Positions 28,193 to 50,403 are shown, counted from the first letter of the stretch. The stretch: 64,000 nt of DNA from Chloroflexota bacterium (GCA_003228685.1 QIFC01000029.1:1759-65758); one strand, 5' to 3'. The notes: generated by a model from the sequence alone, not told the origin. A program made the numbers and translations.

Positions 28193-28295
28193 GCGGGTAT
28201 CAGCCACCGCAACGAATTGCCACGCCGCTCGTTCGCATGAGTAGGATGGACGCAACTATTCGATCGGCGCCAGCTACCGCCGGAGGCCAGAGCAC

Positions 28296-29177: not shown

Positions 29178-29187
29178 CGCCTCACTC

Positions 29188-30871: not shown

Positions 30872-30887
30872 GCGAAGGTCAGCATAG

Positions 30888-32207: not shown

Positions 32208-32267
32208 CCCGAGTCGTTTCGCCTGGAACCGCCACGTAGAGCGTGGTAAGAACGTAGCCTCGCCGGA

Positions 32268-33518: not shown

Positions 33519-33727
33519 TGCGCCTCCCATCACCTTCCACAACGTGACTACGTCCCGCACATATCGTCGTGATTACGGAGTACGTCGGGCCGCGGAGAAG
33601 CACATCATCTGCTAGGCGTCACGTCCAGCTAAATATAGCGTATCAACCAGCGTCCATGCGGCTGCCGGGGCTGCTTGAGGTCGCCACTACGCGACACTAC
33701 ACTTAGATACGCGTACCTGGGGGATCT

Positions 33728-34666
33728 ATGCCACGAATCCGAGTCGGCGTCACGCATACGTTGGAGCAGGCAGATTGGCCGGAATTTCTCAGGTTCTGGC
33801 AGGGTCTAGATCGCGAAACACTGATCGACAGCCTCTGGACCTCGGACCACCTTATCCCTCTGGCCAGCGAAACCGGGATGGACGGGCCATGCCTTGAAGG
33901 CTGGACCGCCGCCGCCGCCGCGGCACAGGCGACCGAACGGCTAAGAATCGGGTGTGTCGCGACGGCCGTCACGATGCGCCATCCATCGATCGTAGCGAAG
34001 ATGGCCGCCACGCTCGATCACATCTCCCTCGGCAGATTGGAGTTCGGGATCGGTGCCGCTTGGCACGGCGGTGAGCACGCCGCTTACGGCGTCGAATTTC
34101 CGCCGGTGGCGCAGCGCGAAGATATGCTCGAGGAGGCGGTGCAGGTGATCAGGCTGCTCTTCCGTGCGGAGGGCCCCGTCGATTTTGATGGTACTTACTA
34201 CTCGCTACGCCAGGCGCCCTTTGCGCCTGTTTGCGTTCAGCGGCCTCATCCGCCCATCACGGTCGCCGGTGGCGGCGAGAAGCGCACATTACGCACCGCC
34301 GCGCGCTACGCCGACGCCGCGAACGTCATCGGAGGCGTATCAACGGCTCGACGAAAGATGGCGGTCCTCGATGCCCACTGTGAAGACGCCGGCCGCGACC
34401 CCCGCGAGGTCGCCAGGTCTGCTGTAAGTCCGATCTGGCTCACCAGGAGCGAGAGCGAAGCCAGAGACCGGCGTGACGCAATGGTGCTATACACAGGTGG
34501 GGACGGCGCGGAGGACCTTGCCATGGGCGATGCAGATCACATCAGAGACGTAATCGACCGGTTCTTGGAGGCCGGTGTTAGCCAGCTAGTGACGGTCGCG
34601 TTGCCACCGTTTGACCTCGACCAGTACCAGCGCCTCTCAGATGAGGTACTCATAGCCTACGAGTAA
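33728..34666 (+). CDS. Luciferase-like monooxygenase (LLM) family, probably an F420-dependent oxidoreductase
   Basis: Typical LLM pattern: SLWTSDHL, HPSIVAKMAATLDHISLGRLEFGIGAAW. Confidence 0.8.
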   Translation: MPRIRVGVTHTLEQADWPEFLRFWQGLDRETLIDSLWTSDHLIPLASETGMDGPCLEGWTAAAAAAQATERLRIGCVATAVTMRHPSIVAKMAATLDHISLGRLEFGIGAAWHGGEHAAYGVEFPPVAQREDMLEEAVQVIRLLFRAEGPVDFDGTYYSLRQAPFAPVCVQRPHPPITVAGGGEKRTLRTAARYADAANVIGGVSTARRKMAVLDAHCEDAGRDPREVARSAVSPIWLTRSESEARDRRDAMVLYTGGDGAEDLAMGDADHIRDVIDRFLEAGVSQLVTVALPPFDLDQYQRLSDEVLIAYE

Positions 34667-34736
34667 GCGCGGGCAGTAACCTTCGAGACCGTCAGCCCAG
34701 GTCCTGTACTGCCACTTCCTGACCATGGTGGAGTGA

Positions 34737-35567
34737 TCAGCCTTGTTCTTCAACTGCGACACTCTCTTCCGCAGCCACCGCAGGCTGCCAGACGAACACG
34801 GCCACATCGGCCAGCCGGGGGACGCGCCGGGCCAGCTTGTCCAGGCCGCTCACAAGGATGGTGCCGAACCGGACCGGAAGGAATGAGAGGAATCGACCCC
34901 ATCCGGGGAAGCCAAAGAGGAGCGACACCCCGTAGGTCCGCACCACTCGGAAATACGGCTCACCTAGCGCTCGGGTATTGTGGAACGTGTACTCCCACGA
35001 ATGGAAGCGGGGCACGGGGCTGTCCCATAGGAGCAGCTTGCTCCGGGCCGGCGGCCAGACGGCGCGAAATATCCAGTAGAGCCAACGACTTACACGGATG
35101 GTGAAACCGCCATAGTTGTTGATGCTAACCACCGCCCGGCCCTCGGGGTGTAGCACCCGGACGAACTCCCGCATCGTCCCCTCTCGGTCGACCAGGTGAT
35201 CGAGGGCCGATTTGCAGATGAGCGAATCGAACACTCCTTCTTTGAACGGTAGCCATTCCGCCACTCCCTGCACCAGATTGATCCGCATCCCCCCCTCGAG
35301 GGCGGTCTTCCTGGCATCGCGGAGTTGCAGGGGCGAGGGGTCAAGGCCCCACCCCTCCCAGCCGGCGTGACTCATGGACGCGATATCGCGCGCATCGCCG
35401 CAGGCGACGTCCAGCACGCGGCCGCCTCCCTTCCCCGCGCCAGCGCTTTCCTGCACGAACCGGTCCCACCAGCCAAACAGGAGGTACGCGTCCAGCGTGC
35501 GGGGCATGATGCCCAGCAGCTCATCTGAGTGCCAGTGTGTCTGATACGCTTGCACATCAACCTTCAT
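34737..35567 (-). CDS. Class I SAM-dependent methyltransferase
   Basis: VLDVACGDARD motif I and LHPEGRAVV. Reverse-strand promoter TTGTTC (35650-35645)-17 nt-TATAAT (35627-35622). Confidence 0.8.
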   Translation of the reverse strand: MKVDVQAYQTHWHSDELLGIMPRTLDAYLLFGWWDRFVQESAGAGKGGGRVLDVACGDARDIASMSHAGWEGWGLDPSPLQLRDARKTALEGGMRINLVQGVAEWLPFKEGVFDSLICKSALDHLVDREGTMREFVRVLHPEGRAVVSINNYGGFTIRVSRWLYWIFRAVWPPARSKLLLWDSPVPRFHSWEYTFHNTRALGEPYFRVVRTYGVSLLFGFPGWGRFLSFLPVRFGTILVSGLDKLARRVPRLADVAVFVWQPAVAAEESVAVEEQG

Positions 35568-35828
35568 CGGATCCTCCGGTCGCAGAAACGAATGCCAGAT
35601 TTGAGATGGATGCTGGGCGTTATTATACTGGCATCTTCTTGGGTGAACAACGGCGTGTACTCCTCAGGCACATTGATGACACGCACGTCTCCCCGTGCCG
35701 GTGGGAGCACTACATCCGCAGGCTGGAATCGCCACGTCAACGTGGCGTTCGCGCCGTAAAGGGCAACCCGCCGGCCCGGATCTGAGACGGCTGCTGGGAG
35801 AGCCTGAGCCAGGGCTTAGAGCAGCAAC

Positions 35829-36452
35829 CTAGAGCGTCGTGTCCGGAACGCTCTCGATAATCTTCGCCGGAACCCCGCCGACTGTCTTGAACGCCGGCAC
35901 GTCCTTCGTGACCACGGCGTTCGCGCCAATCCGCGCACCAGGACCGACCTTCACATTGCCGAGGACCTTGGCACCGGTGCCGACGAACGTGCCATCGCCA
36001 ATCTCGGGCCCGCGGAAGTCGTCTTGGACCAAGCCTATTCCCACTCCCCAGGCCACAAAACACCTACGGCCAACCAACGTTACGCCAAAGATGCCGATGT
36101 TCCCGTGGGCCAGACAGACCCCTTCTTTGAGCACCGCTGTATCGCCAATCCGAAGGTTGAAGAACAGACTGCAAATGTGGTCGAGCAGACGAGGAATGAT
36201 CGGCACGTGGTGAGCCTGCAACGAGGCGCGCACCCGGTACAGCGCGAGTCCCAGATAGTCGTTGGCCATCCACAACAGCCGCAGCACGTTCATCCACTTC
36301 TGCAGCTTGTTCTTGAAGTCGTATGGTTCGCCGCGGTGTGCGCAGTACATCTCCGCGTCCTCGGCCAGGGCGAGGAGCAGCGAAGGACGAAACTTGCTCA
36401 GTTCTTCGAAGCGTTGGTAAACCAGGGCTGCTCTGTGAGGAAGATCATCCAA
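35829..36452 (-). CDS. Hexapeptide-repeat (LbH) O-acetyltransferase, serine-acetyltransferase-like, paralog A
   Basis: IGDGTFVGTGAKVLGNVKVGPGARIGANAVVTKDVP hexapeptide repeats. TTG start. Confidence 0.8.
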   Translation of the reverse strand: MDDLPHRAALVYQRFEELSKFRPSLLLALAEDAEMYCAHRGEPYDFKNKLQKWMNVLRLLWMANDYLGLALYRVRASLQAHHVPIIPRLLDHICSLFFNLRIGDTAVLKEGVCLAHGNIGIFGVTLVGRRCFVAWGVGIGLVQDDFRGPEIGDGTFVGTGAKVLGNVKVGPGARIGANAVVTKDVPAFKTVGGVPAKIIESVPDTTL

Positions 36453-36553
36453 GGGGCACCCCTCTCAGCGGTGGTCTCGCATTAGAACTGTCTTGCAAGA
36501 GTATCGACCAAGACTCATGACGCGATAAGACTGACGCTTCACTCTTGTCATAG

Positions 36554-37189
36554 CTATCCCGTTTTCGATACGACGCGGGCGGGCACCCCGGCCACAGTCG
36601 CGCAGGCGGGGACATCCCGTAGAACGACCGCGTTCGCGCCAACCTGAGCACCTGCGCCGATCTTCACGTCACCCAGGATCTTCGCGCCGGTTCCCACAAA
36701 CACTTCGTCACCCAGTTCCGGACCGACGACGTCGCGTTGCAGCACACCAATGGTCGTCCACGGCGCCAGCACGCACCCATGACCGACTATCGATATCCCG
36801 TCCAACACTACTTGGCCGTGGGGGATGTAGACACCCGCTTTCAAGACCACCAGGTCTCCTATCCGGATACCAAAAAAGAACGTGCAGGCGAAGTGCAGCA
36901 GCCGCGGCAGAATCGGTACGCCCATGGCGTGGAGCGAGGCGCGGACACGATACAGAGCCAGCCCTAGATAGTCGTCGGCGGACCACAGCAGGTGCAGAAC
37001 ACCCAACAGCGTTCCGCCCTGCGTCCTTGGGCCGCTCCCCTCCCCGCGGTGCGCGCGGAAGACGGCCGCATCAGCAGCCAGCGCGTTGAGCAGGGGCGGA
37101 CGCTGCGCGAGAACGTCCTTCAGGAACGCGTCAAAGCGCTCTTCGGGTGTGGGGGTGAACTCGTCGGGCTGATCCATCCCTGCCATCAT
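36554..37189 (-). CDS. Hexapeptide-repeat (LbH) O-acetyltransferase, paralog B
   Basis: LGDEVFVGTGAKILGDVKIGAGAQVGANAVVLRDVP, collinear with paralog A. The track's 294-aa form was trimmed to the MMAGMDQP start region (37189/37186/37177). Confidence 0.75.
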   Translation of the reverse strand: MMAGMDQPDEFTPTPEERFDAFLKDVLAQRPPLLNALAADAAVFRAHRGEGSGPRTQGGTLLGVLHLLWSADDYLGLALYRVRASLHAMGVPILPRLLHFACTFFFGIRIGDLVVLKAGVYIPHGQVVLDGISIVGHGCVLAPWTTIGVLQRDVVGPELGDEVFVGTGAKILGDVKIGAGAQVGANAVVLRDVPACATVAGVPARVVSKTG

Positions 37190-37388
37190 TGATATCCCTG
37201 TCCCAGCGCGGGACCTGAGGGCGCTCCATGCCGTAGGGCATTGTAACAGGGCGCCTGCACTACGTATGAGCGCAACGAGATGCCAGCGATGAGCATCATG
37301 CGAATGAGAGCCTTGGACGAGATTGCCTTCACGCGTGGCCAGCCGTGGCCGATGATGCTTGTGTTTGAGGACCGCGGATTGCGGCCAC

Positions 37389-38600
37389 TCATTGTGTGCG
37401 GGGAGCCCTAGGCGCCTTCGCGTCTCGCACGGGGGCAACAGTGTGCGTTAATTGCTGCTCGACACCAAGCAGTTCGGAGAAGAGCCGCTCGTAGTACTCG
37501 GCGGTCCTGCGCGAGCTGAAGAGTTCACGTATCTCGTCCGCAGGCCGAACATAACGTTCCGGCTCTTTGATTACGGCCGTGATAGCGCGGGCTAGTGCTA
37601 CGTCATCGCCGGGCGGAACCAACTCGCCCATGCCCGTGACTCGCACGGTCTCACGGACACCCGGCAGGTCTGTCGCAACGACAGGCGTGCCCATCAGCAT
37701 CGCCTCCGCCTGCGTCATCCCGAACGACTCAGTCGAATTCACGCTGGGCAAGACGAGGACGTCTATCATGTCGAAGAACGCCGCCAGCTCAGCGTCCGAA
37801 AGGATGCCAACGTGGGTCAGCCGGGAACCCAATCTCTCCATGTCCTGCCGAACCTGTTCATAGACGCGCTCGCCCAACACCTGGTCAGTGGGTCCGGCGA
37901 GTACGTAGCGCACGCCGGGTACCGCCTCTTCGACCAACGGAACGGAACGAATGAGACTGGGAATCCCCTTTTCCTCGGCGAAACGGCCGACGAAGCCCAC
38001 GAGGGGTCCGTCGCCAAGGCCGTGACGCCGCCGCAGCTCCAAGCCGCTCAGCGAGGCATCTTCAAGCTCGATCGGCGGGTAGACGCAAGAGACTTTGGCG
38101 TTGAAGTGACGTGGCAGACGCGCCCTCTTGCCAAATTCTTCAGCGTTGACGACGATGCGGTCCGCGAATTTGCCTGACAGATAGTGAGACACACGAATGG
38201 CAGGTGTAAACACGTAGCGGGGCGGCCCGTTCGGCAGTTCAATGTCACAGTGGTAGGTCATGACAACGGGCTTACGCAGCAGCTTCCCGACGAACGCCGG
38301 CCAGCTTGCTTCTAGCTGTGGCAAATGGATGTGGACTAGGTCATGTGACGCGACAAGCTTGGCAGCCTGCCAGGGAAACAGCGGCATGAGGGCGCCTTTG
38401 CTCACCTGCATGAGCACGCTGGAGCGGATGACCTTCACGCCGTCCAGTTCTTCGGTTTTGGGAAGGTCTGAGTCGTAGCGAGAGGTGAGGACCGTGACCT
38501 CATGGCCGCTGGCGATAAGACGTCTGTACAGTCGCTGAGCGTAGACGGTCAGCCCGCTAATGTGGGGCGCGTAGTACGTCAACACGGCGAGGATGCGCAT
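37389..38600 (-). CDS. Family 4 (GT-B) glycosyltransferase
   Basis: MRILAVLTYYAPHISG start with a GGAGG SD. C-terminal SVNSTESFGMTQAEAMLMGTPVVATD (EX7E region). Confidence 0.85.
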   Translation of the reverse strand: MRILAVLTYYAPHISGLTVYAQRLYRRLIASGHEVTVLTSRYDSDLPKTEELDGVKVIRSSVLMQVSKGALMPLFPWQAAKLVASHDLVHIHLPQLEASWPAFVGKLLRKPVVMTYHCDIELPNGPPRYVFTPAIRVSHYLSGKFADRIVVNAEEFGKRARLPRHFNAKVSCVYPPIELEDASLSGLELRRRHGLGDGPLVGFVGRFAEEKGIPSLIRSVPLVEEAVPGVRYVLAGPTDQVLGERVYEQVRQDMERLGSRLTHVGILSDAELAAFFDMIDVLVLPSVNSTESFGMTQAEAMLMGTPVVATDLPGVRETVRVTGMGELVPPGDDVALARAITAVIKEPERYVRPADEIRELFSSRRTAEYYERLFSELLGVEQQLTHTVAPVRDAKAPRAPRTQ

Positions 38601-38691
38601 GCTGCCTCCAACGTTAGTCGCGAATGCTCGTCTGAATCTAACGCTCTGCACCAGAGCACGTTGCTCCCACGCGATCGTTGAGCAACAGGCA

Positions 38692-39768
38692 TCATGTGGG
38701 GTGATGTCTTTCGCTCACCCCACCTAGATCAGCCACACGCACTTGGCCCAAGGGCGCTGACTCATGCATGTCCGCGTCTTCGGGCCCACCGCCTTCCCCC
38801 CGCCGCCGAGCACGGCGAGATTTCAGTTCACGCCAGAGAAGGTAGCCAGCGCCCAGAATGGTAGGCGGGAGCAAATACAGCGCATGAGCAACCAGAGCGT
38901 ACGTTGCGGCCGGTTCTTGAGCAACAGAGAACACGATAGTTAGCGTCTTGATGCTGATAATGTCATAGACACCCACCGCGCCGGGTGACGATGGGATGAA
39001 GAAGCCAAACGTTGTAGCGACAAGGAGGAATGGGGCAGCCGTCAGGGGCACATCAATCGAGAACGCCTGCAAGACGAGGTAGATAATGGTAGCGGAGCTG
39101 GCCCAAGAAAGAACCGTCCACATCAAGACAAGGGCCACGACGCGAAGGTGGGAGAGCGCAGAGAGGCCTTCAAGCGCGGAAACCGCTATAGGGCGAAGTC
39201 TTGGCGCAGCCCACGCAGGGAGCAAGGTCAGAATTCGCTCGAGGAGGGCGCCCGCGCGCTGCCGGTCTACGACTGCGAACACGACTACAGCTATAGCCAC
39301 AATTGCCACGATCAGTATCAGCACAGCCGAGAACAGGGCAGCGCGAGGAAAGTCGACGAACGGAATGAGCAGGCCAAGGATCGAAAGCAAGACCACAATA
39401 TCGATGAGGCGCTCTACAGCGATGGTGGAAAGCACGTGCGCTTTGGAAATTCCTTCGTCCTCGCCCAGCACGTATGCCCGGGCCACTTCTCCCAGTTGCA
39501 ACGGCAGAACGTTTCCCGCCATATAGCCCACGCTCAGCGCGCCGAATGTGGAGGAGAGAGCAATGTCCTTGCGCGGATAGAACAGCAAACGCCACCGTTC
39601 AGCTCGCATCGCGATCATAGCCAGCATGATAGGAATCACGGCCAACACGAGCAGGTAGTTGGCCTCAGCAAGAGACGTGCCAACCTGCCGCCATTCGACG
39701 CCGACGAACGCGACGTAGAGGGCGACCGCGCTGATAACCAGACCTACGAGCCAGCGGAGGTGCCGCAT
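38692..39768 (-). CDS. Flippase-like / LPG-synthase-TM (UPF0104) family membrane protein
   Basis: About 8 TM segments. RWRLL and GEVARAYVL motifs are typical of UPF0104. Start at MRHLRW (39768) behind a GGGAGG SD. Confidence 0.65.
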   Translation of the reverse strand: MRHLRWLVGLVISAVALYVAFVGVEWRQVGTSLAEANYLLVLAVIPIMLAMIAMRAERWRLLFYPRKDIALSSTFGALSVGYMAGNVLPLQLGEVARAYVLGEDEGISKAHVLSTIAVERLIDIVVLLSILGLLIPFVDFPRAALFSAVLILIVAIVAIAVVVFAVVDRQRAGALLERILTLLPAWAAPRLRPIAVSALEGLSALSHLRVVALVLMWTVLSWASSATIIYLVLQAFSIDVPLTAAPFLLVATTFGFFIPSSPGAVGVYDIISIKTLTIVFSVAQEPAATYALVAHALYLLPPTILGAGYLLWRELKSRRARRRGEGGGPEDADMHESAPLGQVRVADLGGVSERHHPT

Positions 39769-40025
39769 TGTGCCTCCCATTCGATTCGGGTCACTAGTTT
39801 GTAACGGTGGTAGTCCAGTGCGTGTTACCATAAGCAACACGAGAAATGAGGCCCACCCCGTTATGGTCGCCCGACTATGGGAGCACAGTATACTACATGA
39901 CGTATCTGAGACTCATCCACCTAGAGCGCCTCTCCACGGGTCACTCCAATTTGGAGCGCACCAGGCACGGAGTTGGATTCTCCATGTCTGGGTGTGGGCG
40001 GTAGCTGCTAGGAGGCGGACGGCGA

Positions 40026-40820
40026 ATGGGGCTCGCGAATACGATTCTACGGTCACGTCTCGCCAGATGGGTGCTGGCCGCCGGCGAGCGCTCCCCGTTA
40101 CGCCGGCTGCTGACAAGCGCGGTCTACGACTCACAAGTAGGCCTGCACACCGGCAGCGGCGACATGGAAGAAGATTGGAACAGTCGCGCGCGCCGCAACG
40201 CTCGCTTTTATGTCGCAGGCTTCGATTGGCACTCCGAGGAAGAGTTCCGCCGCTCTGGCAGGCGCGACCTGGACGGCATCATCCTCAAAGGGCTGGAGCT
40301 GCCGCAGGGAGCGATCGTTCTGGAGATCGGCTGTGGTCTCGGGCGGCTCTTGCGACCTCTTTCAGCGCGCGTGAAAGAGGCACATGGCGTCGATATCTCC
40401 TCGGAGATGGTCTCGCAAGCTGCCGAAGCGCTCGCGGATTGTCCCAACGTAGTGATACGGCAGACGGACGGGACGCTAGGCCAGTTTTCGAGCGAGTATT
40501 TTGACTTCTGCTTTTCGTATACGGTGTTCCAGCACATCTCAGATAAGGCAGCCGTATTGCGATACATCCAAGACTCTGGGCGAGTGCTTAAGCCCGGGGG
40601 CCTATTCCGCTTTCAGATCTGCCGCGGCGAGCCTGACAGCCCTCGCAACAGGGCCGGCGGCACGTGGCTGGGCGTTGTCTTTACGGAAGCGGAACTGGAG
40701 GAACTGCTGGAGGAAAGCGGCTTCGCGGTCATGGACATCGTTGAGGAGTTGACGCCGGCCGACGCCAGCCGGTGGGATTCCATTATCCTTACGTGTCAGA
40801 AACGTGAGCGGCGGCGTTAG
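40026..40820 (+). CDS. Class I SAM-dependent methyltransferase
   Basis: VLEIGCGLGRLL motif I and LKPGGLFRFQ. Confidence 0.8.
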   Translation: MGLANTILRSRLARWVLAAGERSPLRRLLTSAVYDSQVGLHTGSGDMEEDWNSRARRNARFYVAGFDWHSEEEFRRSGRRDLDGIILKGLELPQGAIVLEIGCGLGRLLRPLSARVKEAHGVDISSEMVSQAAEALADCPNVVIRQTDGTLGQFSSEYFDFCFSYTVFQHISDKAAVLRYIQDSGRVLKPGGLFRFQICRGEPDSPRNRAGGTWLGVVFTEAELEELLEESGFAVMDIVEELTPADASRWDSIILTCQKRERRR

Positions 40821-40825
40821 TACGG

Positions 40826-41584
40826 ATGCACAATAAAGCACCGGTAGAAGGTAGGGATGCCACCAACATGGACGAGCCGTACGACGAGGCCTACTACGAT
40901 CCCGGTCGCTACGGCGGGAAGTACAGCCAGTACTGGTGGGCACGCCGCTTCTACGCCGCTCTCATCAAACGATTCCTTGAAAAGGGAAAGGTATTGGAAA
41001 TCGGCTGCGGACTGGGACACGTTCTGGCGCGGTTGGAGAACGACTACGAGACATTTGGAATCGACGTTTCCGAGTACGCAATCGAGCAGGCACGGACCAA
41101 CTCGCCGAAGTCTGATCTCCGTACCGCCGCGATGGAGGAAGCCGGCTCGCTACCAGGACCTTTTGACCTGATTGCCACATTCCATGTGGTCGAGCACCTG
41201 GATGACCCCGGGAGGGCGCTGGAGCACCTCTGGGAGATGACGAGGCCCGGCGGCCTGCTGTGCTTCGCAACGCCGAACACCGAAGCTCCTTTCGCTCAAA
41301 GCAAGGGCGCCCAGTGGTACGCGAATCAGGACCCCACACACATTTCGCTCAAGTCTCCCCGCGAGTGGAAGGAGCTGACCCGGCGAGCTGGTTACGAGAT
41401 CCAGCAGACATTTGGCGACGGCATGTGGGATGTGCCCTACGTCCCGTTCGTACCGCCGCGCATCCAGCTCCTCTTCTTTGGCCTGCCCGCAGTCCTCCAG
41501 ACGTTGACATGTGTGCCGCTGATCCCCACTCGGTTCAGTGAGAGTCTCATCCTGGTTGCAAGGCGACCACTGCAAGAGGCCTGA
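40826..41584 (+). CDS. Class I SAM-dependent methyltransferase
   Basis: VLEIGCGLGHVLARL, HVVEHLDDP, TRPGGLLCFATPN. An alternative start is the ATG at 40868. Confidence 0.8.
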   Translation: MHNKAPVEGRDATNMDEPYDEAYYDPGRYGGKYSQYWWARRFYAALIKRFLEKGKVLEIGCGLGHVLARLENDYETFGIDVSEYAIEQARTNSPKSDLRTAAMEEAGSLPGPFDLIATFHVVEHLDDPGRALEHLWEMTRPGGLLCFATPNTEAPFAQSKGAQWYANQDPTHISLKSPREWKELTRRAGYEIQQTFGDGMWDVPYVPFVPPRIQLLFFGLPAVLQTLTCVPLIPTRFSESLILVARRPLQEA

Positions 41585-41616: not shown

Positions 41617-43227
41617 ATGTTAGGCCCACGGATCACAGCCTTACGTGTTGACCAGCGGGTCGTGTTGGCATTGATCGTGCTCGCGGGGCTGGTCCTGAGG
41701 CTCATCCTTGCCTGGCAAGACATTGAGTCACTCGCGATCAGCGTTACCCCGGACGACACGTACTACTACCTCCAAGTTGCACGCACCATCGTCGAGGGCA
41801 ATGGCCCGTCGCTTGACGGTATCAACATTACGAACGGATTCCATCCGCTCTGGCTGGCCTTGCTTCTACCCTTCGCCAAGTTGGGCGACAGCGCGTTCGT
41901 TCACACGGCGACAACACTTGGTGCGATCATCGACACGGCAGCGATTGTGGCCCTCTGGTGGGCGCTGGCGCCGCTGACCAAGCGCGTGCTGGTCCGTGCG
42001 ATTGCTGTCTCGTTCTACGCCTTCAGCCCACCAATCATCTTCAGCGCGGCCAGCGGCATGGAGACCGGCCTGTCGCTCCTTCTGCTGATCCTGCTCTTCG
42101 GCTTGCTGCTCCGCTCGCGAGAGCGGGATCCGGCCGACTATGGCTATTGGGTACTCTTCGGCGTTGTCAGCGGCCTGGTGGTTCTGGCGAGAACGGACAG
42201 CGGGATCATTGTTGCGGTATTACTGCTGTTCATGGCCGTCCAGCGGGTTCGCGATCTGCGTCCAATCCTCCTCGCCGGCGCCTGCGCTGGGGCCGTCACG
42301 CTGCCGTGGTTCGTCTGGAACATCGCTACATTCGGCACGCCCGTCCAGGGAAGTGGAGAGGCGATGAGCCTCTGGCGGCACGGCGGCCTCTACCCCATGG
42401 GGACGGGATCGCTGAGCAATACTTTGTCCGCAAGCTGGAATCAACTCAGTTTCGCATTTCGTAACGAGGTCCCTAACACGTACTTCTTTTCGAAGCACTA
42501 CTTGACCGCCCTAGTAGGTGTATGGGCGGCAGGTACGCTCATTGCCGCCAAGCAGTCCGCCAATGCCAGGCTCGCGATCCAAAAGCATCTTTTCCTCTTA
42601 CTCGCGCCCGCGGTTGGTCTCGCCTTGCTAATCAGTTTCCATGCTGGCGTCCGCTGGTTTCTCCGCCCTTGGTATTTCGCCGTCGCGATACCTATTGTCT
42701 CGTTGTATCTGGCGTCGGGCCTGGACGTGATCCTGACCTGGCTGGCCGAGCAACGCCAGAGGGGGCGTCAATTACAGTATGTGGTGGTACCGATCTTGCT
42801 GGGCGTCATGATTACCACGATGTACGGCATGGCCGATAAGGGGATGGACAAATGGCGTCCAGGCTTCCAGCCCTGGGGCCCGGACATGCTCGCCGGTGCG
42901 CGCTGGATAAACGAAGAGACGCCGGAGGACACCACCGTGGCCGGTCTGAACGTCGGCTTCCTTTCATACTTTGGGCACCGGCCGACGATTAACCTAGACG
43001 GCGTGGTCAACGATGGCGCACTGGACGCACTCAGGAAGCGTGAACTACTCGCATACGTTCAGGCTCAGGGCCCTACCTACATCGTCGAATACGACCTCTA
43101 TCTCTTCAATTTCTATCGCGTTTTCTGGGGGGCAGACCTCCAACCGTATTTGCGATTGGAACAGGAGTTCAGAGATGCGGTCCAAGGCTTTCCTTACCGC
43201 GTATACTCTTTCGACTCTGACCAGTAG
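41617..43227 (+). CDS. GT-C fold integral membrane glycosyltransferase-like protein (ArnT/GT39-like)
   Basis: About 12 TM segments. The first periplasmic loop carries PDDTYYYLQVARTIVEG, a GT-C acidic motif. A C-terminal soluble domain follows. Confidence 0.55.
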   Translation: MLGPRITALRVDQRVVLALIVLAGLVLRLILAWQDIESLAISVTPDDTYYYLQVARTIVEGNGPSLDGINITNGFHPLWLALLLPFAKLGDSAFVHTATTLGAIIDTAAIVALWWALAPLTKRVLVRAIAVSFYAFSPPIIFSAASGMETGLSLLLLILLFGLLLRSRERDPADYGYWVLFGVVSGLVVLARTDSGIIVAVLLLFMAVQRVRDLRPILLAGACAGAVTLPWFVWNIATFGTPVQGSGEAMSLWRHGGLYPMGTGSLSNTLSASWNQLSFAFRNEVPNTYFFSKHYLTALVGVWAAGTLIAAKQSANARLAIQKHLFLLLAPAVGLALLISFHAGVRWFLRPWYFAVAIPIVSLYLASGLDVILTWLAEQRQRGRQLQYVVVPILLGVMITTMYGMADKGMDKWRPGFQPWGPDMLAGARWINEETPEDTTVAGLNVGFLSYFGHRPTINLDGVVNDGALDALRKRELLAYVQAQGPTYIVEYDLYLFNFYRVFWGADLQPYLRLEQEFRDAVQGFPYRVYSFDSDQ

Positions 43228-43378
43228 CGGTTTCGGCGTGTGTGATGATATCCACCAGTGTTCCCAGCCAGCGTTCCCAGCCAGCCACTCTTCTTGGTAG
43301 CAATGCTGTTGAATCGATCCCCTTGCTGAACTTCAGAAGCAGGCCTACACTTAAGCGATCAGTCTTGGAGGTGTATCG

Positions 43379-45055
43379 ATGCGCGTTGCCAAACTCTTGC
43401 TGAAGCCCCTCATACTCTTGGCCGCTGTCGTAGCAGGCTCTGTTGCTACGTCCTTGTTGGCGACCGATGTCAGGACCGTCGGTCTCTTCCTGAACGATAC
43501 AGCAGCATATGACGGCTATACGTTGTTCGCGCCCAATGATGGCAACACTTACCTCATCAATAACGACGGGCAAGCAGTCCACACCTGGGACTCCAGCGGT
43601 TGGAATGGCGTGACTCCTTATCTGCTGGATGACGGCAGCATCATTCAAGTCACAGCGTTTCCCAACGAGGGCATCCAGCGTCGTGCGTGGGACGGAACGG
43701 TCTTGTGGAGCTATCGTATCGCTGGAGCCCACCATGACATTGAAGTGTTGCCGAATGGCAACATCTTGATGATTGTGAACGAATTTAAGACCGCCGCCGA
43801 GGCGACACAAGCGGGCAGGGACCCTGCATCCCTCAATCCAGCCAGGTCGTTTCCTCTCATGATCGAAAAGATCATCGAAGTTGAGCCCGTGGGAGCGTCG
43901 GGCGGCAACATCGTGTGGGAGTGGAACGTGTGGGACCATCTAATCCAGGACTTTGATGCTTCGAAGGACAATTTCGGCAGCGTTGCTGACCATCCCGAAC
44001 TGGTGGACGTTAACTTCGGCGACCCGCCGTTTTTTGCTTTTAATGACGCGGACTGGCTGCACGCCAACGGCATCGACTACAATCCTGAGTTCGACCAGAT
44101 CATGGTTAGCGTCCGGCAATTCAATGAATTCTGGGTTATTGACCACAGCACATCGACGGAGACGGCGGCAAGCCACAGTGGCGGCAACAGTGGTAAGGGG
44201 GGTGACTTGCTCTATCGCTGGGGCGACCCCCAAGCGTATGACGCTGGAGACGAGAGCGACAAGATGCTATTCGCTCAACACGACGCCCAGTGGATCGTGC
44301 CCGGCCTGCCAGGGGCGGGTAACATCCTCGTCTTCAACAACGGAGTACGCCGCCCGAGCGGAAAATACTCCTCGGTCGACGAGCTGGTGCCGCCAGTCGA
44401 TGCGTTTGGTGACTACTCCCTGTCCCCTGGCGAGGCATACGGGCCGGCAGATCTCGCTTGGTCCTACTCGAGTCCCTCCGATTTCTACTCTTCGATACTC
44501 TCAGGCGCAAGCCGCCTCCCGAATGGAAACACGCTCATTGATGCCGGCGTCCAAGGGACGTTCTTTGAAGTGACGGTCGAGGGTGAGACGGTCTGGAAGT
44601 ACGTTAATCCGGTCACTGCAGCCGGGCCGCTGCGGCAGGGCGAGCCCCCTCCCGTGGCCATCGCTCCACCGAATCCCAACGCGGTGTTCAGGATTTATCG
44701 CTACCCGTTGGATTATCCGGCGTTCGAAGGGAGAGACTTGACCCCACAAGGCCTACTCGAACTTCCGAAACCAACACCAGTGATCACCGCGACGTCTACT
44801 GCCACTCCTACGGCGCCAGCAACGGCCACGCCAACGAGCACCCCTGTTCCAGCGGGAGTGCTGGGCGACGCTGACGGAGATGGCAGCGTTACAGCTATCG
44901 ATGCTGCGCTTCTCTTACAGTTTACCGCCGGCCTCTTGGCTGAACTTCCTGACCCGGTCAGAGCTGACATGAACGGCGATGGCTTGCTGAACGCGATCGA
45001 TGCCGCGCTCATCCTGCAGACCACGGCCGGATTGTTCGCAGCGACGCCGGCATAG
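43379..45055 (+). CDS. Secreted arylsulfotransferase (ASST)-like beta-propeller protein with Pro/Thr linker and C-terminal dockerin, paralog 1
   Basis: GGAGG SD and a signal anchor. Motifs HHDIEVLPNGNILM, GGNIVWEWNVWDHLIQDFD, WVIDHSTSTETAASHSGGNSGKGGDLLYRWGDPQAY and NGNTLIDAGVQGTFFEVT. The C-terminus GDADGDGSVTAIDAALLLQF...ADMNGDGLLNAIDAALILQ gives two dockerin Ca-loops. Confidence 0.6.
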   Translation: MRVAKLLLKPLILLAAVVAGSVATSLLATDVRTVGLFLNDTAAYDGYTLFAPNDGNTYLINNDGQAVHTWDSSGWNGVTPYLLDDGSIIQVTAFPNEGIQRRAWDGTVLWSYRIAGAHHDIEVLPNGNILMIVNEFKTAAEATQAGRDPASLNPARSFPLMIEKIIEVEPVGASGGNIVWEWNVWDHLIQDFDASKDNFGSVADHPELVDVNFGDPPFFAFNDADWLHANGIDYNPEFDQIMVSVRQFNEFWVIDHSTSTETAASHSGGNSGKGGDLLYRWGDPQAYDAGDESDKMLFAQHDAQWIVPGLPGAGNILVFNNGVRRPSGKYSSVDELVPPVDAFGDYSLSPGEAYGPADLAWSYSSPSDFYSSILSGASRLPNGNTLIDAGVQGTFFEVTVEGETVWKYVNPVTAAGPLRQGEPPPVAIAPPNPNAVFRIYRYPLDYPAFEGRDLTPQGLLELPKPTPVITATSTATPTAPATATPTSTPVPAGVLGDADGDGSVTAIDAALLLQFTAGLLAELPDPVRADMNGDGLLNAIDAALILQTTAGLFAATPA

Positions 45056-45245
45056 CTCTCTCCTCGGAGGAGTCATACTACATTCTGAACTGGCCGCCCC
45101 TTGCCAATATGTACCGAGATTATGTAAATTGGTTTGCTGAAACGAACGCTCGGCTACAGGCGTTTCTCTGTATAGGCCGCGGGCGTTCGTGGCCGGATGA
45201 GGGTCGTTTCGACGGTTCTCGCCTCGCTGGAAGGAGCGATGCTAC

Positions 45246-46955
45246 GTGATAAAGATACGCTGGATTCTCGTGATCATCGGATTTATGGCCCTCGCCATTG
45301 GCGCAACGTCGATGACAGGAGCCACCGCCGAGCAGACGGTCGGTCTGTTTCGGAACGACCCAGGCGCCTTCGACGGCTACACGCTGTTCGCACCGAACCG
45401 CTCGAACGTAACATATCTCATCGATAACGACGGCCAGATCGTGAACACTTGGACGAGTTCGTACGGGCCTGGGGTATCTGTCTACCTGAAGGAGAACGGC
45501 AATCTCATCCGCACCGCGAACATACGCGAACTCAATAACACGTTCGGAGCACTAGGCGGTGGCGGTGGGCGAATCGAAGAGTACGCATGGGACGGTACCC
45601 TCATCTGGGGCTACAACTACTCAGTCGGCCTAGAAGAGTATCTAGCAGACCCCGTCTTCCAGCACCACGACATCGCGGTCCTGCCGAACGGCAACGTGCT
45701 GATCCTCGCTTGGGAGTACAAGTCCGGCGCCCAGGCCATCGCAGCTGGCCGGGACCCAGCACTGATGGAGGACGGAGTCGTATTCCCGGAACACATCGTC
45801 GAGGTTGAGCCGGTAGGAGAGACGGGCGGCAACATCGTCTGGGAGTGGTACAGCTGGGACCACATGATCCAGGACTTCGACGAGACGCAACAGAACTTCG
45901 GCGTGGTCGGCGACCATCCAGAGCTGATCGACATCAACTACGGCAATACCATCGATGACTGGCAGCACGCAAACGCGCTCAACTACAACGAAGAGCTTGA
46001 CCAGATTATGATCAGCGTTCGCGCGTTCGACGAACTCTGGGTGATCGACCACAGTACCACGACGGAGGAAGCGGCGAGTCACAGCGGAGGCGACAGTGGC
46101 ATGGGCGGCGACTTGATCTACCGCTGGGGCAACCCCCAGGCCTACGACCGCGGGGACGAGAGCGACCGACAGTTCTTCATGCAGCACGACACACAATGGA
46201 TCGAACCCGGCCTGGACGGAGCGGGGAACATCCTCGTCTTCAACAACGGGCAGGAACGCGAGCCTGAAGAGTTCTCTACAGTCGTCGAAATTGTGCCGCC
46301 GGTCGACGCGTCCGGAAACTACATACTCGAGGACGGCGCGGCCTTCGGGCCTGCGGCTCCCACATGGAGCTATCAGGCTCCCAACCCCACGGACTTCTAC
46401 TCATCGTTCATCTCGGGAGCGCAGCGTCTGCCGAACGGCAATACGCTGATCGATGCCGGCGCCCAGGGCCACTTCTTTGAGGTCACTTCAGAGGGCGACA
46501 TCGTTTGGGACTACATAAGCCCGGTCACCGCAGATGGGCCGCTCGCGCAAGGCGTGGTTCCGGAGACTCGCGCCAACATCGTGTTCCGAGCGACGCGCTA
46601 TGGAAAGGATTACCCTGCCTTCGAAGGCAAGGACCTCGTACCCATGGGCGTCATCGAGCTACCGAAGCAGGAAGGAACGCCAGATCCGACCGACACACCG
46701 GAACCCACGGAGACGCCGGAGCCGACGGACACGCCGGAACCGACGGCAACGCCGGTGCCGGTCGTGGCGGGCGACGCGAACTGTGACGGTACGGTCAACG
46801 CGATCGACGCGACGCTTGTGCTGCAGTTGTCCGCGGGAGTCGTCTCTTCACTGGAGTGCGAAGGGAACGCGGACGTGAACGGCGACGGCGCAGTTACGGC
46901 TGTTGATGCCACGCTGATCTTGCAGTTCATCGCGGGCCTGCTTCCTGAGCTGTAA
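45246..46955 (+). CDS. Secreted ASST-like beta-propeller protein with PT/PE linker and C-terminal dockerin, paralog 2
   Basis: Same motif set as paralog 1 (HHDIAVLPNGNVLIL, GGNIVWEWYSWDHMIQDFD, WVIDHSTTTEEAASHSGG). Linker DPTDTPEPTETPEPTDTPEPTATP. Dockerin GDANCDGTVNAIDATLVLQL...ADVNGDGAVTAVDATLILQF. Confidence 0.6.
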   Translation: MIKIRWILVIIGFMALAIGATSMTGATAEQTVGLFRNDPGAFDGYTLFAPNRSNVTYLIDNDGQIVNTWTSSYGPGVSVYLKENGNLIRTANIRELNNTFGALGGGGGRIEEYAWDGTLIWGYNYSVGLEEYLADPVFQHHDIAVLPNGNVLILAWEYKSGAQAIAAGRDPALMEDGVVFPEHIVEVEPVGETGGNIVWEWYSWDHMIQDFDETQQNFGVVGDHPELIDINYGNTIDDWQHANALNYNEELDQIMISVRAFDELWVIDHSTTTEEAASHSGGDSGMGGDLIYRWGNPQAYDRGDESDRQFFMQHDTQWIEPGLDGAGNILVFNNGQEREPEEFSTVVEIVPPVDASGNYILEDGAAFGPAAPTWSYQAPNPTDFYSSFISGAQRLPNGNTLIDAGAQGHFFEVTSEGDIVWDYISPVTADGPLAQGVVPETRANIVFRATRYGKDYPAFEGKDLVPMGVIELPKQEGTPDPTDTPEPTETPEPTDTPEPTATPVPVVAGDANCDGTVNAIDATLVLQLSAGVVSSLECEGNADVNGDGAVTAVDATLILQFIAGLLPEL

Positions 46956-47166
46956 ACAGCTCCCGGAACGCGAGCGCCTCGCGGTACTCCGAAGGTTACG
47001 CCCATGGCCGGTGAGGCGTGCCTTCGCGCTATCGCTGGTAGGATCGGTGGCGGACTATGCTTCCCGATGAACCAGGATGTCGCATAGCGCGGGTACTGGC
47101 AGTGCAAGACTATGAGCAGTTCTGAATCTGCGTCTCCACGGTCAGAAAAGCGCTAGGGTGGTCAAA

Positions 47167-48687
47167 ATGAGTAGATCGCAGCAGACTCCGGTCACCGATC
47201 GTGTCGATTCTATCACGTCCAGGCTGGCTGAAGTCGTAAGACCGGTAGGCCGGCTTCTGGCAAGACAGCCTCTCCTCATACTAGGTCTGATCCTCGCGCT
47301 CACCTTCGGCATTTATGCCCAGGCGATCAACGACTGGTTCCAGACCGACGACTTCCTCCTCCTCAGAGGCGCAAAGGCCGTTCCGTTCCTGACCTACGTG
47401 CGGGAGGCTTTCGATTTTCGCGACTTTGAGCCCCTACGGCTCTTCGCATACCGGCCGCTGGCGTTCATCACGACCGATGTCCTCTACATCACCTTCGGTC
47501 TAGACCCGGCGCCGTATCATCTGCTCCAGATCGCCGCCCACATGCTCAACGTTGTGCTGGTCTGGCACATCGCTCGCCGCATGACGCGGTCGCTCCTGGT
47601 CGCTAACTTGGCCGCGCTCGTGTTCGCCATCCACCCGATCTACAGCCAGACTGTCATTTGGATCGCAGCCAACAACTCGCAGCTAGCCCTGACGGGCCAA
47701 CTGCTGTCATTCGTCGCGTTCTTGGAGTTCTCCAGGCGCAACTCGTGGCCATGGCTCGGAGCTTCGGTCGTCTTGTACGCAATCGCGATTCTCTTTCACC
47801 AAGAAGGCTTCCTGCTCCCGTTGGTGCTCGCGATCTACTGGTGGTTCGAGCGAGGAGAGCTATCTCGAGATTCGATCCGGTCCGCAACCGGCATCTTCGC
47901 GCCGTACGGCATTGTCCTCTTATCGTTCCTCGCTATCCAGTCGTTCAACGCCAACGAGTCGGGGTTTGACAGTTTCTTCAAGCCGGAGTTCGCTCTCGCC
48001 GAAACCTACGCGGGCGCGCTGGCGATGTCCGCGTTCCCCTTCTTGCTCGCCAAGATGCAATGGTTCCACGTGCTGGCGGCCGTCGTCGGTGTCCTCTCGG
48101 TTGGCTTCGCGTTCGTCGTCAACCCGCAGCGACGCTCTGTGATCATCGTCGCCGTCGTCTGGTACCACGTTTCGCTCCTGCTTACCTTGCTCTTCTACAC
48201 CAACCTCGTGGTTGCCGTCGTCCCGTTCATGGCTCGAAAGCTCTATCCTGCTGGGCCTGCTCTTGCGATCTTGATCGCCCTCGTCGCGGAGGCCTTCTGG
48301 ATCGTCGTCCGGCCGCGGCTGCCTGCTATGGCGCCGCAAGCGGCTCTCGCAATCGTCGTCGTCCTCTCGGCACTCGTGGTGTTTCGAACCGATGAGATGA
48401 TAGACGAATTCAACGTCTTGGCGGAGGATAGCCAGGCGTTCATTAACGGGTTGCAAGCCGAGCACCCGACGCTGGCGGAGGGTGACACGCTCTACGTAGC
48501 GAACGCACCGCTTGCGCTCGTCGTTTTCTGTACGCCCGGCGTCCTGTGTTACCTGGAGGACGCGATCTATATGTACTATGGCGAGGTCCGAGTGGAGCGC
48601 GTGTCCGTGGCCGAGCTGGATTCGCTCCAGCTGGGCGACGACGAACGCTCGTTCTGCTGGCTATGCGCGCCCGCCAGGTCTGACTAG
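47167..48687 (+). CDS. GT-C fold membrane protein, PMT_2/TMTC-like (DUF1736-type)
   Basis: FQTDDFLLL acidic loop motif, then YRPLAFITTDVLYITFGLDPAPYHLLQIAAHMLNVVLVWHI and FAIHPIYSQTV. This pattern is typical of bacterial TMTC-like O-mannosyltransferase homologs. ATG at 47167 (GTG at 47158 is possible). Confidence 0.55.
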   Translation: MSRSQQTPVTDRVDSITSRLAEVVRPVGRLLARQPLLILGLILALTFGIYAQAINDWFQTDDFLLLRGAKAVPFLTYVREAFDFRDFEPLRLFAYRPLAFITTDVLYITFGLDPAPYHLLQIAAHMLNVVLVWHIARRMTRSLLVANLAALVFAIHPIYSQTVIWIAANNSQLALTGQLLSFVAFLEFSRRNSWPWLGASVVLYAIAILFHQEGFLLPLVLAIYWWFERGELSRDSIRSATGIFAPYGIVLLSFLAIQSFNANESGFDSFFKPEFALAETYAGALAMSAFPFLLAKMQWFHVLAAVVGVLSVGFAFVVNPQRRSVIIVAVVWYHVSLLLTLLFYTNLVVAVVPFMARKLYPAGPALAILIALVAEAFWIVVRPRLPAMAPQAALAIVVVLSALVVFRTDEMIDEFNVLAEDSQAFINGLQAEHPTLAEGDTLYVANAPLALVVFCTPGVLCYLEDAIYMYYGEVRVERVSVAELDSLQLGDDERSFCWLCAPARSD

Positions 48688-48738
48688 GAAGGCGTGGTAA
48701 ACTCACGCGTACGCTCGGCCTACAGTTGGAGGTACTAC

Positions 48739-50403
48739 GTGCTTACGAGACGTCTCATACTTTTGGCTCTGTTCTTGGCCGGCATGGCTGTAAGCATGGT
48801 GGTATTTTCAGCTAGTGCCACGGAGCAGACTATGGGCCTGTTCCTCAACAACCCGGGCTCTTTCGACGGCTATACCCTGTTTGGAACGCTTGGCACCGAC
48901 ACCGCCTATCTGATTGACAATGATGGCAGGCTCGTTCACTCCTGGGACGAAATTAGCGGAAACGGCATCGAACTTCTAGAGGATGGCAGCCTGATCCGTG
49001 GCCCAAACCAAGAAACATTCGGAGCACCGCAAACGGTGACGCGGCTTGATTGGGATGGAACTGTCATGTGGGAGTTCGAGTACTCCGTTGCTGACAGGTC
49101 TCTTCATCATGACATTGAAGTTCTGCCCAACGGCAACGTGCTGATAGTCTCCTGGGAGATTTGGCCGTCCGCGGCCGCAATTGCGGCCGGCAGGAACCCC
49201 TCCTTGTTGGAAGAAGGCCAGCTTCGATCGTTCAGCCTTATTGAGGTCGAACCAACGGGATCCAGTGGCGGGAACATTGTCTGGGAATGGCGTTCTTGGG
49301 ATCACCTCGTACAGGACTTCGACCCGACCAAAGACAACTTTGGTGTCGTCGCCGAACACCCCGAACTCATCGACATCAATTTCATCGAGTTCACGCAGTC
49401 TCCTGGTGGACAAGCGACCTGGCATCGCGCAAACTCCGTCGACTATAACGAGGAACTCGACCAGATCATTGTGAGCATCCGCAACTTCAGCGAGATCTGG
49501 GTGATCGACCATAGCACGACGACCGAGGAAGCAGCGAGCCACACTGGGGGCGACAGCGGCAAGGGTGGGGACCTTCTCTACCGTTGGGGCAACCCGCAGG
49601 CGTACGGCGCCGGCGACCAGAATGACCAGCTGAGCTTCTCTCAACACGATGCCCAGTGGATCGAAGCTGGTCTGCCTGGCGAGGGCAACATCTTGATCTT
49701 CAACAACGGACGCGGCCGCACACCGGAGCCGTTCTCCACAGTCGACGAGATCGTGCCGCCGGTTGACGAGTCCGGCAACTACTCGCTCGACCCAGGCCAA
49801 GCCTACGGGCCCACGGCGCCCACGTGGAGTTATCAGGCCCCTAACGCGCCTGACTTCTATTCCTCTTTCGTCTCCTCAGCGCAGCGCCTGCCGAACGGCA
49901 ACACACTGATCAACGCCGGCGCCCAAGGCACCTTCTTTGAAGTCACGCCGTCTGGAGAGACGGTGTGGCGGTACGTTAACCCCGTGAAGCGATGCTGTGG
50001 CCCCATGACGCAAGGTGATCCAATACCACCACAGATTGGCGAGCTGGGAGGTGGGAATACGACCTTCCGAATACTCCGCTACGCTCCGGACTATCCTGGT
50101 CTCCAAGGCAGAGAATTGACCCCGCAGGGCGCGATCGAACTGCCGAAGCCTACGCCCGAGACCACTGTGACGCCAACGGAGCCGCCGACGCCCACGCCAG
50201 TAACCCTCATTCTGGTTGGGGACGCGAATTGCGACGGGGATGTCAACAGCATTGATGCCGCGCGAATTCTTCAGTACTCCGCCGGCCTTACCGATCTGCC
50301 GCCTTGCCCCTTAAACGCAGACGTGAACAACTCAGGCGACATCAGTAGCGTGGACGCCACGCTTGTCTTACAGGCTGTCGCCGGACTGATTAGGTTCGAC
50401 TGA
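48739..50403 (+). CDS. Secreted ASST-like beta-propeller protein with PT linker and C-terminal dockerin, paralog 3
   Basis: Same motif set (HHDIEVLPNGNVLIV, GGNIVWEWRSWDHLVQDFD, WVIDHSTTTEEAASHTGG). Dockerin GDANCDGDVNSIDAARILQY...ADVNNSGDISSVDATLVLQA. Start set at GTG 48739, six nt after GGAGG (the track start is 48694). Confidence 0.6.
   Translation: MLTRRLILLALFLAGMAVSMVVFSASATEQTMGLFLNNPGSFDGYTLFGTLGTDTAYLIDNDGRLVHSWDEISGNGIELLEDGSLIRGPNQETFGAPQTVTRLDWDGTVMWEFEYSVADRSLHHDIEVLPNGNVLIVSWEIWPSAAAIAAGRNPSLLEEGQLRSFSLIEVEPTGSSGGNIVWEWRSWDHLVQDFDPTKDNFGVVAEHPELIDINFIEFTQSPGGQATWHRANSVDYNEELDQIIVSIRNFSEIWVIDHSTTTEEAASHTGGDSGKGGDLLYRWGNPQAYGAGDQNDQLSFSQHDAQWIEAGLPGEGNILIFNNGRGRTPEPFSTVDEIVPPVDESGNYSLDPGQAYGPTAPTWSYQAPNAPDFYSSFVSSAQRLPNGNTLINAGAQGTFFEVTPSGETVWRYVNPVKRCCGPMTQGDPIPPQIGELGGGNTTFRILRYAPDYPGLQGRELTPQGAIELPKPTPETTVTPTEPPTPTPVTLILVGDANCDGDVNSIDAARILQYSAGLTDLPPCPLNADVNNSGDISSVDATLVLQAVAGLIRFD

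Follow-up and report, generated by a model that had tools for sequence, protein, structure and literature searches.

Dockerin-tagged proteins of the aryl-sulfate sulfotransferase family encoded beside an envelope-glycan locus in a Chloroflexota bacterium

Characterised arylsulfotransferases and the proteins of the Chloroflexota locus

Two structurally characterised aryl-sulfate sulfotransferases (ASSTs) are the closest described relatives of the proteins considered here. The first, Cpz4 of the caprazamycin biosynthesis in Streptomyces sp. MK730-62F2, is a cytoplasmic tailoring enzyme whose antibiotic gene cluster also provides the aryl-sulfate donor; synthesis of this donor needs a type III polyketide synthase (PKS), a sulfotransferase of the 3'-phosphoadenosine-5'-phosphosulfate (PAPS) type and sulfate-activation genes. 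Cpz4 sulfates a sugar hydroxyl (PMC13426309). The second is the extracytoplasmic AssT of Escherichia coli CFT073 (EcAST; Protein Data Bank (PDB) entries 3elq, 3ets and 3ett), a Cluster I enzyme that possesses an N-terminal beta-sandwich and has a Dsb partner in its operon. We analysed a stretch of 64,000 nucleotides from a Chloroflexota bacterium (GCA_003228685.1, QIFC01000029.1:1759-65758), referred to as the window throughout, which encodes three paralogous proteins, ASST1, ASST2 and ASST3. Their genes lie at 41617-50403 in a run of five open reading frames (ORFs), all on the plus strand, together with two genes for membrane glycosyltransferases of the GT-C type (GTC1 and GTC2; Table 1).

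Pairwise identity among the three paralogs is 53-55% over their full length. The conserved blocks listed in the preliminary description of this DNA (TYLIDNDG, HHDI.VLPNGN, GGNIVWEW..WDH..QDFD, W[VI]IDHST.TE.AASH.GG, YRWG.PQAY, QHD.QWI and NGNTLI.AG.QG.FFEVT) were all recovered when the three sequences were aligned. Each protein matches two Pfam families above the curated cutoffs: the arylsulfotransferase family PF05935 (Arylsulfotrans), with scores of 81.6, 79.7 and 92.3 bits for ASST1, ASST2 and ASST3, respectively (cutoff 24.2 bits; E-values of 7e-23, 3e-22 and 4e-26), and PF00404 (Dockerin_1), with scores of 36-43 bits (cutoff 22.9 bits; E-values of 3e-9, 6e-11 and 6e-9). ASST2 additionally matches PF14269 (E 4e-9). 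A sequence profile of the three catalytic domains retrieves AssT (E 5e-4).

ASST2 was modelled with AlphaFold2 from an alignment of 56 sequences. The model has a mean pLDDT of 88.2 and consists of an N-terminal helix (residues 2-23), an all-beta propeller (34-453), a disordered Pro/Thr/Glu linker (483-501) and the helices of the dockerin (519-529, 539-542 and 552-562). When the PDB was searched with this model using Foldseek, the best matches were to Cpz4 (9kf6 and 9kf4; E 1e-17 and 6e-16), followed by E. coli AssT (3ett and 3elq; E 2-3e-10), and generic or designed propellers ranked lower. Pfam and fold matches thus agree with the earlier assignment of the large domain to the ASST type, and the expected propeller is found in the model; in the sequence alignment, the His of the QHD motif pairs with the sulfated histidine of AssT. 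Membership of the three paralogs in the ASST family is well supported.

Like Cpz4, the window proteins are of a short, propeller-only form of ~450-470 aa that is devoid of the N-terminal beta-sandwich, and they share with it the QHD catalytic motif and a PNGN...G.G..E block at an overall identity of 19-20%. Unlike Cpz4, they carry a predicted export signal and a dockerin, and the genes for donor synthesis are missing from their surroundings, no type III PKS, PAPS-type sulfotransferase or sulfate-activation enzyme having been found among the scanned ORFs of the window. With EcAST they have in common the Pfam family, the propeller fold and a presumed extracytoplasmic location, at an identity of 12-13%. 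EcAST differs in having no dockerin and in having the beta-sandwich and the Dsb partner, neither of which was found here: the propeller of ASST2 begins ~10 residues past the predicted signal peptide, the profile alignment with AssT begins at AssT residue 196, and Pfam scans of the window revealed no Dsb gene.

The active site of EcAST, according to a 2026 review, comprises His252, His356, Asn358, Arg374, Thr501 and the transiently sulfated catalytic His436 (PMC13426309). Equivalent residues were identified by profile alignment to AssT, and their conservation was counted in 56 aligned homologs. In ASST2, His252 corresponds to H141, the second His of the HHD motif (conserved in 56/56 sequences), His356 and Asn358 to H241 (55/56) and N243 (56/56) of a W-x-H-x-N motif, Arg374 to R259, the Arg of SVR.F, and the catalytic His436 to H314, the His of QHD (56/56), a motif that also aligns in Cpz4. 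Thr501 pairs in this family with a hydrophobic residue adjoining an invariant Ser. The counterparts of His252, His356, Asn358 and Arg374 are all present in ASST1 as well as in ASST2; those of ASST1 include H119, H228 and R246, and its predicted catalytic residue is His301. In ASST3, where the predicted catalytic residue is His303, Arg230 replaces the histidine equivalent to EcAST His356 and the motif reads WHRAN, with a His one residue upstream. This is the sole such replacement among the 56 aligned homologs and, by motif count, ~95 further homologs from related loci. It could alter donor binding, or it could mark a regulatory or inactive paralog.

From the sequences and the model, we infer that ASST1-3 are probably exported, PAPS-independent sulfuryl-transfer enzymes of a large environmental ASST clade, encoded beside an envelope-glycan locus. 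Each protein would leave the cytoplasm by means of its N-terminal signal and present a catalytic beta-propeller of the six-bladed type on a Pro/Thr stalk, while the C-terminal dockerin probably tethers the enzyme at the cell surface. Catalysis would most likely take the ping-pong course of the family, in which the invariant QHD histidine receives the sulfuryl group of an aryl or other sulfate ester and the sulfo-enzyme then hands it to a hydroxyl acceptor, or possibly to water. The three paralogs probably differ in substrate, ASST3 having a remodelled sulfuryl-binding position.

The hydrophobic segments at the N-termini end in AxA-like motifs (LLA/TD, ATA/EQ and ASA/TE), and hence resemble cleavable signal peptides more closely than they resemble anchors. 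The preliminary description had spoken of an N-terminal signal anchor; the hydrophobic, export-type segment is indeed there, whereas the anchoring role appears doubtful in view of these ends. The signal of ASST3 begins with M/V-LTRRLILL and resembles a twin-arginine (Tat) motif, and those of ASST1 and ASST2 are Sec-type in appearance.

The C-terminal tails had been described as type I dockerins with paired loop-helix repeats, and the Dockerin_1 scores, together with two DxNxDGxxxxxD loops spaced 33 residues apart in every paralog, corroborate this. In ASST2 and ASST3 a Cys is found in the first calcium-binding loop (DANCDG) and a second one in the linker between the repeats (LEC and PPC, respectively), and the two could form a disulfide; ASST1 possesses neither. 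The above-threshold Dockerin_1 matches would fit a polysaccharide-degrading complex of the cellulosome kind. We consider such a complex scarcely credible here and rejected it, since no cohesin, scaffoldin, glycoside hydrolase or carbohydrate-binding module gene was found among the scanned ORFs of the window, the lack of a cohesin-like gene having been noticed before. Furthermore, on related contigs the dockerin is attached to unrelated exported proteins: a subtilase (L069, 12246-14267), a PD40/Tricorn-like protein (L088, 1-576) and a 254-aa protein (L087, 19978-20742). The same three contigs carry ASST-dockerin genes too, and no cohesin was seen near their other dockerins. The dockerin therefore appears to serve these bacteria as a general tag for the surface or for secretion, which suggests a lineage-wide use of this domain on exported proteins, and in ASST1-3 it would likewise be an export tag and not part of a cellulosome.

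GT-C enzymes and their linkage to the ASST genes

The closest described relatives of GTC1 and GTC2 are enzymes of the ArnT/PMT (GT39-GT83) kind, which they resemble in their polytopic form, in an acidic pair following the first transmembrane segment (TM1) and in having homologs that bear the PMT_2 domain. Unlike members assigned to the ArnT and PMT families, neither of the two passes a curated family threshold. GTC1, with ~10 hydrophobic segments, gave sub-threshold matches only (to the NCBIfam putative glycosyltransferase LA_3751/3752, E 9e-11, and to DUF2142), GTC2 had no direct match in Pfam or NCBIfam, and profile searches of the PDB with either protein found nothing. However, many GTC1 homologs carry PF13231 (PMT_2) and are named as members of the GT39/ArnT family, close homologs of GTC2 carry the same domain, and its distant homologs are TPR-PMT-like. 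Comparison of the two families with hhalign yielded a probability of 97.5% (E 7e-12). The acidic pair is D46/D47 in GTC1, directly after TM1, with both residues invariant in the family alignment, and D64/D65 in GTC2, where D65 is invariant. An AlphaFold2 model of GTC2 (pLDDT 78.9, pTM 0.82) retrieved GT-C enzymes exclusively among the top 25 Foldseek matches, including STT3, ArnT, PglB, AglB, Pmt4, DPY19 and AftA. The earlier recognition of both membrane proteins as GT-C enzymes is thus upheld by their PMT_2-bearing homologs, their mutual homology, the acidic motif and the modelled fold of GTC2.

Sugars from polyprenyl-phosphate donors are classically added outside the membrane by the combination of a family GT2 glycosyltransferase, a flippase-like protein and a GT-C enzyme. 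The three-component systems ArnC-ArnEF-ArnT and GtrA-GtrB-GtrC are organised in this way, and the locus in the window likewise holds a GT2 gene, a flippase-like LPG_synthase_TM gene and GT-C genes. By analogy, GTC1 and GTC2, together with the GT2 and flippase-like proteins, most likely add sugars from such donors outside the membrane. The window also contains a third gene of GT-C type, which encodes a 1682-aa membrane protein with ~28 hydrophobic segments, in which a PMT_2 GT-C domain is fused to DUF2298 (E 4e-110).

As originally observed, the five genes follow one another in the order GT-C, ASST, ASST, GT-C, ASST and close a glycan locus of ~30 kb. The genes are separated by gaps of 51-202 bp. 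For ASST3, the longest ORF opens at 48694; the GTG at 48739 was preferred as the start because the sequence GGAGG lies 7 nt upstream of it. Comparable Shine-Dalgarno sites precede ASST1 (GGAGG before ATG) and ASST2. A scan for promoters and terminators at 39.8-51.1 kb gave fewer matches than in shuffled sequence and no convincing terminators between the five genes; since shuffled sequence did better, the scan does not inform on operon structure.

On the basis of this arrangement it had been proposed that the locus encodes a scaffold-docked sulfation or remodelling module, in which the ASST-dockerin proteins and the GT-C enzymes together build and sulfate, or remodel, the glycan specified by the adjacent locus while docked on a cohesin scaffold. 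The tight interleaving on one strand, with no convincing terminators in between, speaks for this proposal, and Cpz4, the closest solved fold, sets a precedent for the sulfation of a sugar hydroxyl by an enzyme of ASST type (PMC13426309). A four-gene ASST-dockerin array on a contig of another Chloroflexota metagenome-assembled genome (MAG), L002, abuts a gene of the GTC1 family (E 2e-22). Moreover, a glycan locus analogous to that of the window, with a GTC1 homolog (L006; JGI 3300038649), holds two PAPS-type Sulfotransfer_3 genes (2386-4084), beside PMT_2, methyltransferase and ABC-2 transporter genes; this hints that sulfation by the conventional route may occur in related envelope glycans.

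Comparison with related loci did not bear the proposal out. Hidden Markov models (HMMs) of the GTC1 and GTC2 families were run over the six-frame ORFs of 80 related ASST loci, including flanks of at most 10 kb, and matched in two of them (L082 and L050), several kb away from the ASST gene. Among loci of the dockerin clade, a GT-C neighbour is present in two of nine, the window itself and L002, and the neighbours in the remaining ones include serA, a PGA_cap gene, a nuo operon and a subtilase bearing a dockerin, along with further unrelated genes. A conserved neighbourhood was also sought as a clue to ASST function, and the all-against-all clustering of ORFs from 86 loci revealed no recurring ASST partner, the best non-ASST cluster being represented in 11 loci. 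Conversely, four genomic contexts of GTC1 or GTC2 homologs were all neighbourhoods of glycan genes, and none of the four contained an ASST gene in the available sequence. A JGI 3300056388 contig encodes two methyltransferases, LPG_synthase_TM, a GTC2-like protein and a GT4 enzyme; L004 (535-6576) encodes GTC2-like, GT4 and GTC1-like proteins and two hexapeptide acyltransferases; and another context combines methyltransferases with an ABC-2 transporter. These neighbourhoods thus share subsets of the genes of the glycan locus in the window.

Since the surveys show no conserved linkage, it appears that the GT-C genes belong to the glycan locus and that the ASST genes were added locally. Chance adjacency is plausible because genes of the PMT_2 type are dense in this region, with three in 64 kb. 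Taken together with the lack of a cohesin and of genes for donor synthesis among the scanned ORFs, this makes a docked, coupled module unlikely, and the interleaving is best regarded as a local arrangement that would not reflect a conserved system. We likewise consider it quite improbable that the ASST paralogs act in concert with the GT-C enzymes by sulfating, or shuttling sulfate onto, the envelope glycan on the membrane's outer face without PAPS. If they did, the locus would represent an extracytoplasmic glycan-sulfation pathway without a characterised bacterial counterpart and would reveal a new manner of sulfating the glycans of the cell surface.

Distribution of the secreted ASST clade and nature of its reaction

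The clade is very large, with more than 8,000 protein clusters. In a homology search, 7,987 of the 8,000 candidates that were scored reached E<=1e-5, the top 120 being 43-83% identical, and at least 599 loci turned up in a scan in which each species was represented by a single genome. The phyla represented among the loci listed include Chloroflexota, KSB1, Gemmatimonadota, Fibrobacterota, Calditrichia, Bacteroidota, Ignavibacteria, Acidobacteriota, Planctomycetota, Verrucomicrobiota, Actinomycetota, Bacillota and the archaeal Thermoplasmatota, and there are others. Members are ~50% identical across many of these phyla. The C-terminal tag varies by lineage, with Dockerin_1 in the Chloroflexota-like proteins, the sorting domain of the type IX secretion system (PF18962) elsewhere and TSP3 repeats in still others. 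A contig from a Verrucomicrobia MAG (L062, 971-11611) contains an ORF of 3546 aa with an ASST-family domain, which would be a giant multidomain form.

The combination found in the window had been thought to be without a known counterpart. This view has to be abandoned as far as the ASST-dockerin proteins are concerned, which are common in Chloroflexota MAGs and often occur in tandem arrays. Several of them have already been named 'aryl-sulfate sulfotransferase' by the NCBI Prokaryotic Genome Annotation Pipeline (PGAP). The PGAP-named Chloroflexota proteins (for example P0002, P0007 and P0111, with arrays in GCA_029262675.1) display the same succession of signal, ASST propeller, linker and Dockerin_1 as seen here and are 52-83% identical to ASST2, whose closest relative is an 83%-identical protein from a Chloroflexi MAG bearing this name. 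Arrays comprise four genes in L002, three in L008 and three in L087, where two of the three have a dockerin. Most of these loci differ from the window in having unrelated housekeeping or other neighbours. The ASST-dockerin architecture is therefore plentiful, public annotation already has a name for it, and its occurrence next to an envelope-glycan locus is a matter of routine annotation. In the literature, our searches found no paper describing an ASST with a dockerin, nor an ASST in Chloroflexota/Chloroflexi.

In a neighbour-joining tree the window paralogs are placed on deep, separate branches. Relatives of ASST2 in other samples are 78-83% identical to it, and those of ASST1 and ASST3 ~60%. 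Together with the ~54% identity among the paralogs, this indicates that they are old paralogs. Neither a tandem duplication of recent date nor the insertion of the ASST genes by a mobile element was accepted on these grounds, and the DNA repeats detected in the 41-51 kb region correspond to conserved coding blocks only, with no flanking repeats. The paralogs had been suspected to differ in age or origin from a hand-counted GC content of about 48% in one line of the sequence of ASST1 against 58-60% in the other two. The tree agrees with old duplicates, but the compositional contrast is not real: whole-gene GC is 58.3% for ASST1, 60.8% for ASST2 and 58.3% for ASST3, and the lowest 200-nt bin of ASST1 is at 54% (window, 62.2%). 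Separate origins argued from GC were consequently rejected.

The family assignment leaves room for more than one reaction, and a serious though less probable alternative is that these proteins have kept the ASST fold and histidines but are no transferases in vivo, acting as secreted hydrolases of sulfate esters with water as the acceptor, in the service of sulfur or carbon scavenging, or that they catalyse another reaction on phenolic or glycan substrates. An identity of ~50% over many phyla, lineage-specific secretion tags and the lack of a conserved neighbourhood form a pattern that is usual for exoenzymes working alone on a substrate common in the environment. Five residues that are invariant in the clade and absent from AssT (D268, H269, H279, R293 and R394) point to a modified active site. 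The Arg374 equivalent is variable, and identity to assayed enzymes is low. On the other hand, the sulfo-His and three of the four scorable sulfuryl-binding residues are retained at 98-100%, both closest folds are those of true sulfotransferases, and nothing favours a specific alternative chemistry.

We therefore continue to favour sulfuryl transfer by exported ASSTs that are independent of the GT-C enzymes, while a number of observations weigh against this interpretation. The equivalent of Arg374 is kept in 38 of the 56 clade homologs (68%), identity to both characterised enzymes is low, and we know of no assayed member of the short secreted ASST clade. The dockerins found no partner, there being no cohesin match either among the scanned ORFs of the window or in the Pfam tables for the related loci. 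With regard to independence from the GT-C enzymes, the interleaving on one strand with short gaps keeps co-expression possible, and the L002 array does abut a GTC1-family gene. Finally, the natural substrates of most characterised PAPS-independent arylsulfotransferases are obscure (PMC13426309).

The value of the locus lies in the pointer it gives to a huge clade of secreted ASSTs whose surface or secretion tags differ from lineage to lineage. Once a single member had been characterised, thousands of genes from the environment would be annotated, and the clade could add cofactor-free sulfation biocatalysts, possibly sugar-active ones like Cpz4.

The adjacent glycan locus and the rest of the window

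The genes upstream of GTC1 constitute, as judged from Pfam scans, an envelope-glycan locus of the ABC-transporter type (Table 1). It encodes EamA, two GT1/GT4 glycosyltransferases, RmlD, an epimerase/dehydratase, the GT2 enzyme and Wzm/Wzt, further a radical SAM/SPASM protein, a luciferase-like protein, two hexapeptide acyltransferases, a GT4 enzyme and the flippase-like LPG_synthase_TM protein, and it is unusually rich in methyltransferases, of which there are at least seven. A methyltransferase-domain protein encoded directly downstream of Wzm/Wzt could be a chain-terminating modifier, by analogy with ABC-dependent O-antigen systems.

Table 1. Coordinates of the five genes, of sites within them and of other features of the window.
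Feature	Position	Strand	Description
GTC1	41617..43227	+	536 aa; polytopic membrane protein, GT-C of PMT_2/GT39/ArnT type
ASST1	43379..45055	+	558 aa; predicted signal peptide, beta-propeller ASST domain, Pro/Thr linker, type I dockerin
ASST1 His301	44279-44281	+	predicted catalytic residue
ASST1 dockerin loops	44867, 44966	+	loop starts
ASST2	45246..46955	+	569 aa; architecture as ASST1
ASST2 His314	46185-46187	+	predicted catalytic residue
ASST2 dockerin loops	46773, 46872	+	loop starts
ASST2 dockerin Cys pair	46773-46880	+	first loop and inter-repeat linker
GTC2	47158..48687	+	509 aa; polytopic membrane protein, GT-C fold (modelled)
ASST3	48739..50403	+	554 aa from GTG at 48739; architecture as ASST1
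ASST3 signal	48739-48800	+	resembles Tat motif
ASST3 Arg230	49426-49428	+	at the position of EcAST His356
ASST3 His303	49645-49647	+	predicted catalytic residue
ASST3 dockerin loops	50221, 50320	+	loop starts
ASST3 dockerin Cys pair	50221-50300	+	first loop and inter-repeat linker
Envelope-glycan locus	19633..41584		ABC-transporter type; basis Pfam scans
GT2	26308-27327		glycan locus
Wzm/Wzt	29113-30871		glycan locus
Methyltransferase-domain protein	30888-32207	+	439 aa; glycan locus
LPG_synthase_TM	38692-39840		flippase-like; glycan locus
Third GT-C-type gene	4768-9816	+	1682 aa; PMT_2 GT-C domain fused to DUF2298
ORF	9771-11252	-	493 aa; no Pfam match
Low-GC stretch	11800-14000		GC 58-59%, GC3 0.47-0.64
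ORFs of the low-GC stretch	11822-12250, 12410-13270, 13540-13962		no Pfam match
Integrase	934-2133	-	phage-type

Elsewhere in the window, a stretch of lower GC content, in which GC at third codon positions (GC3) is also low, may be foreign DNA; neither its three ORFs nor the 493-aa ORF adjoining it has a Pfam match. The window also contains a gene for a phage-type integrase on the minus strand.

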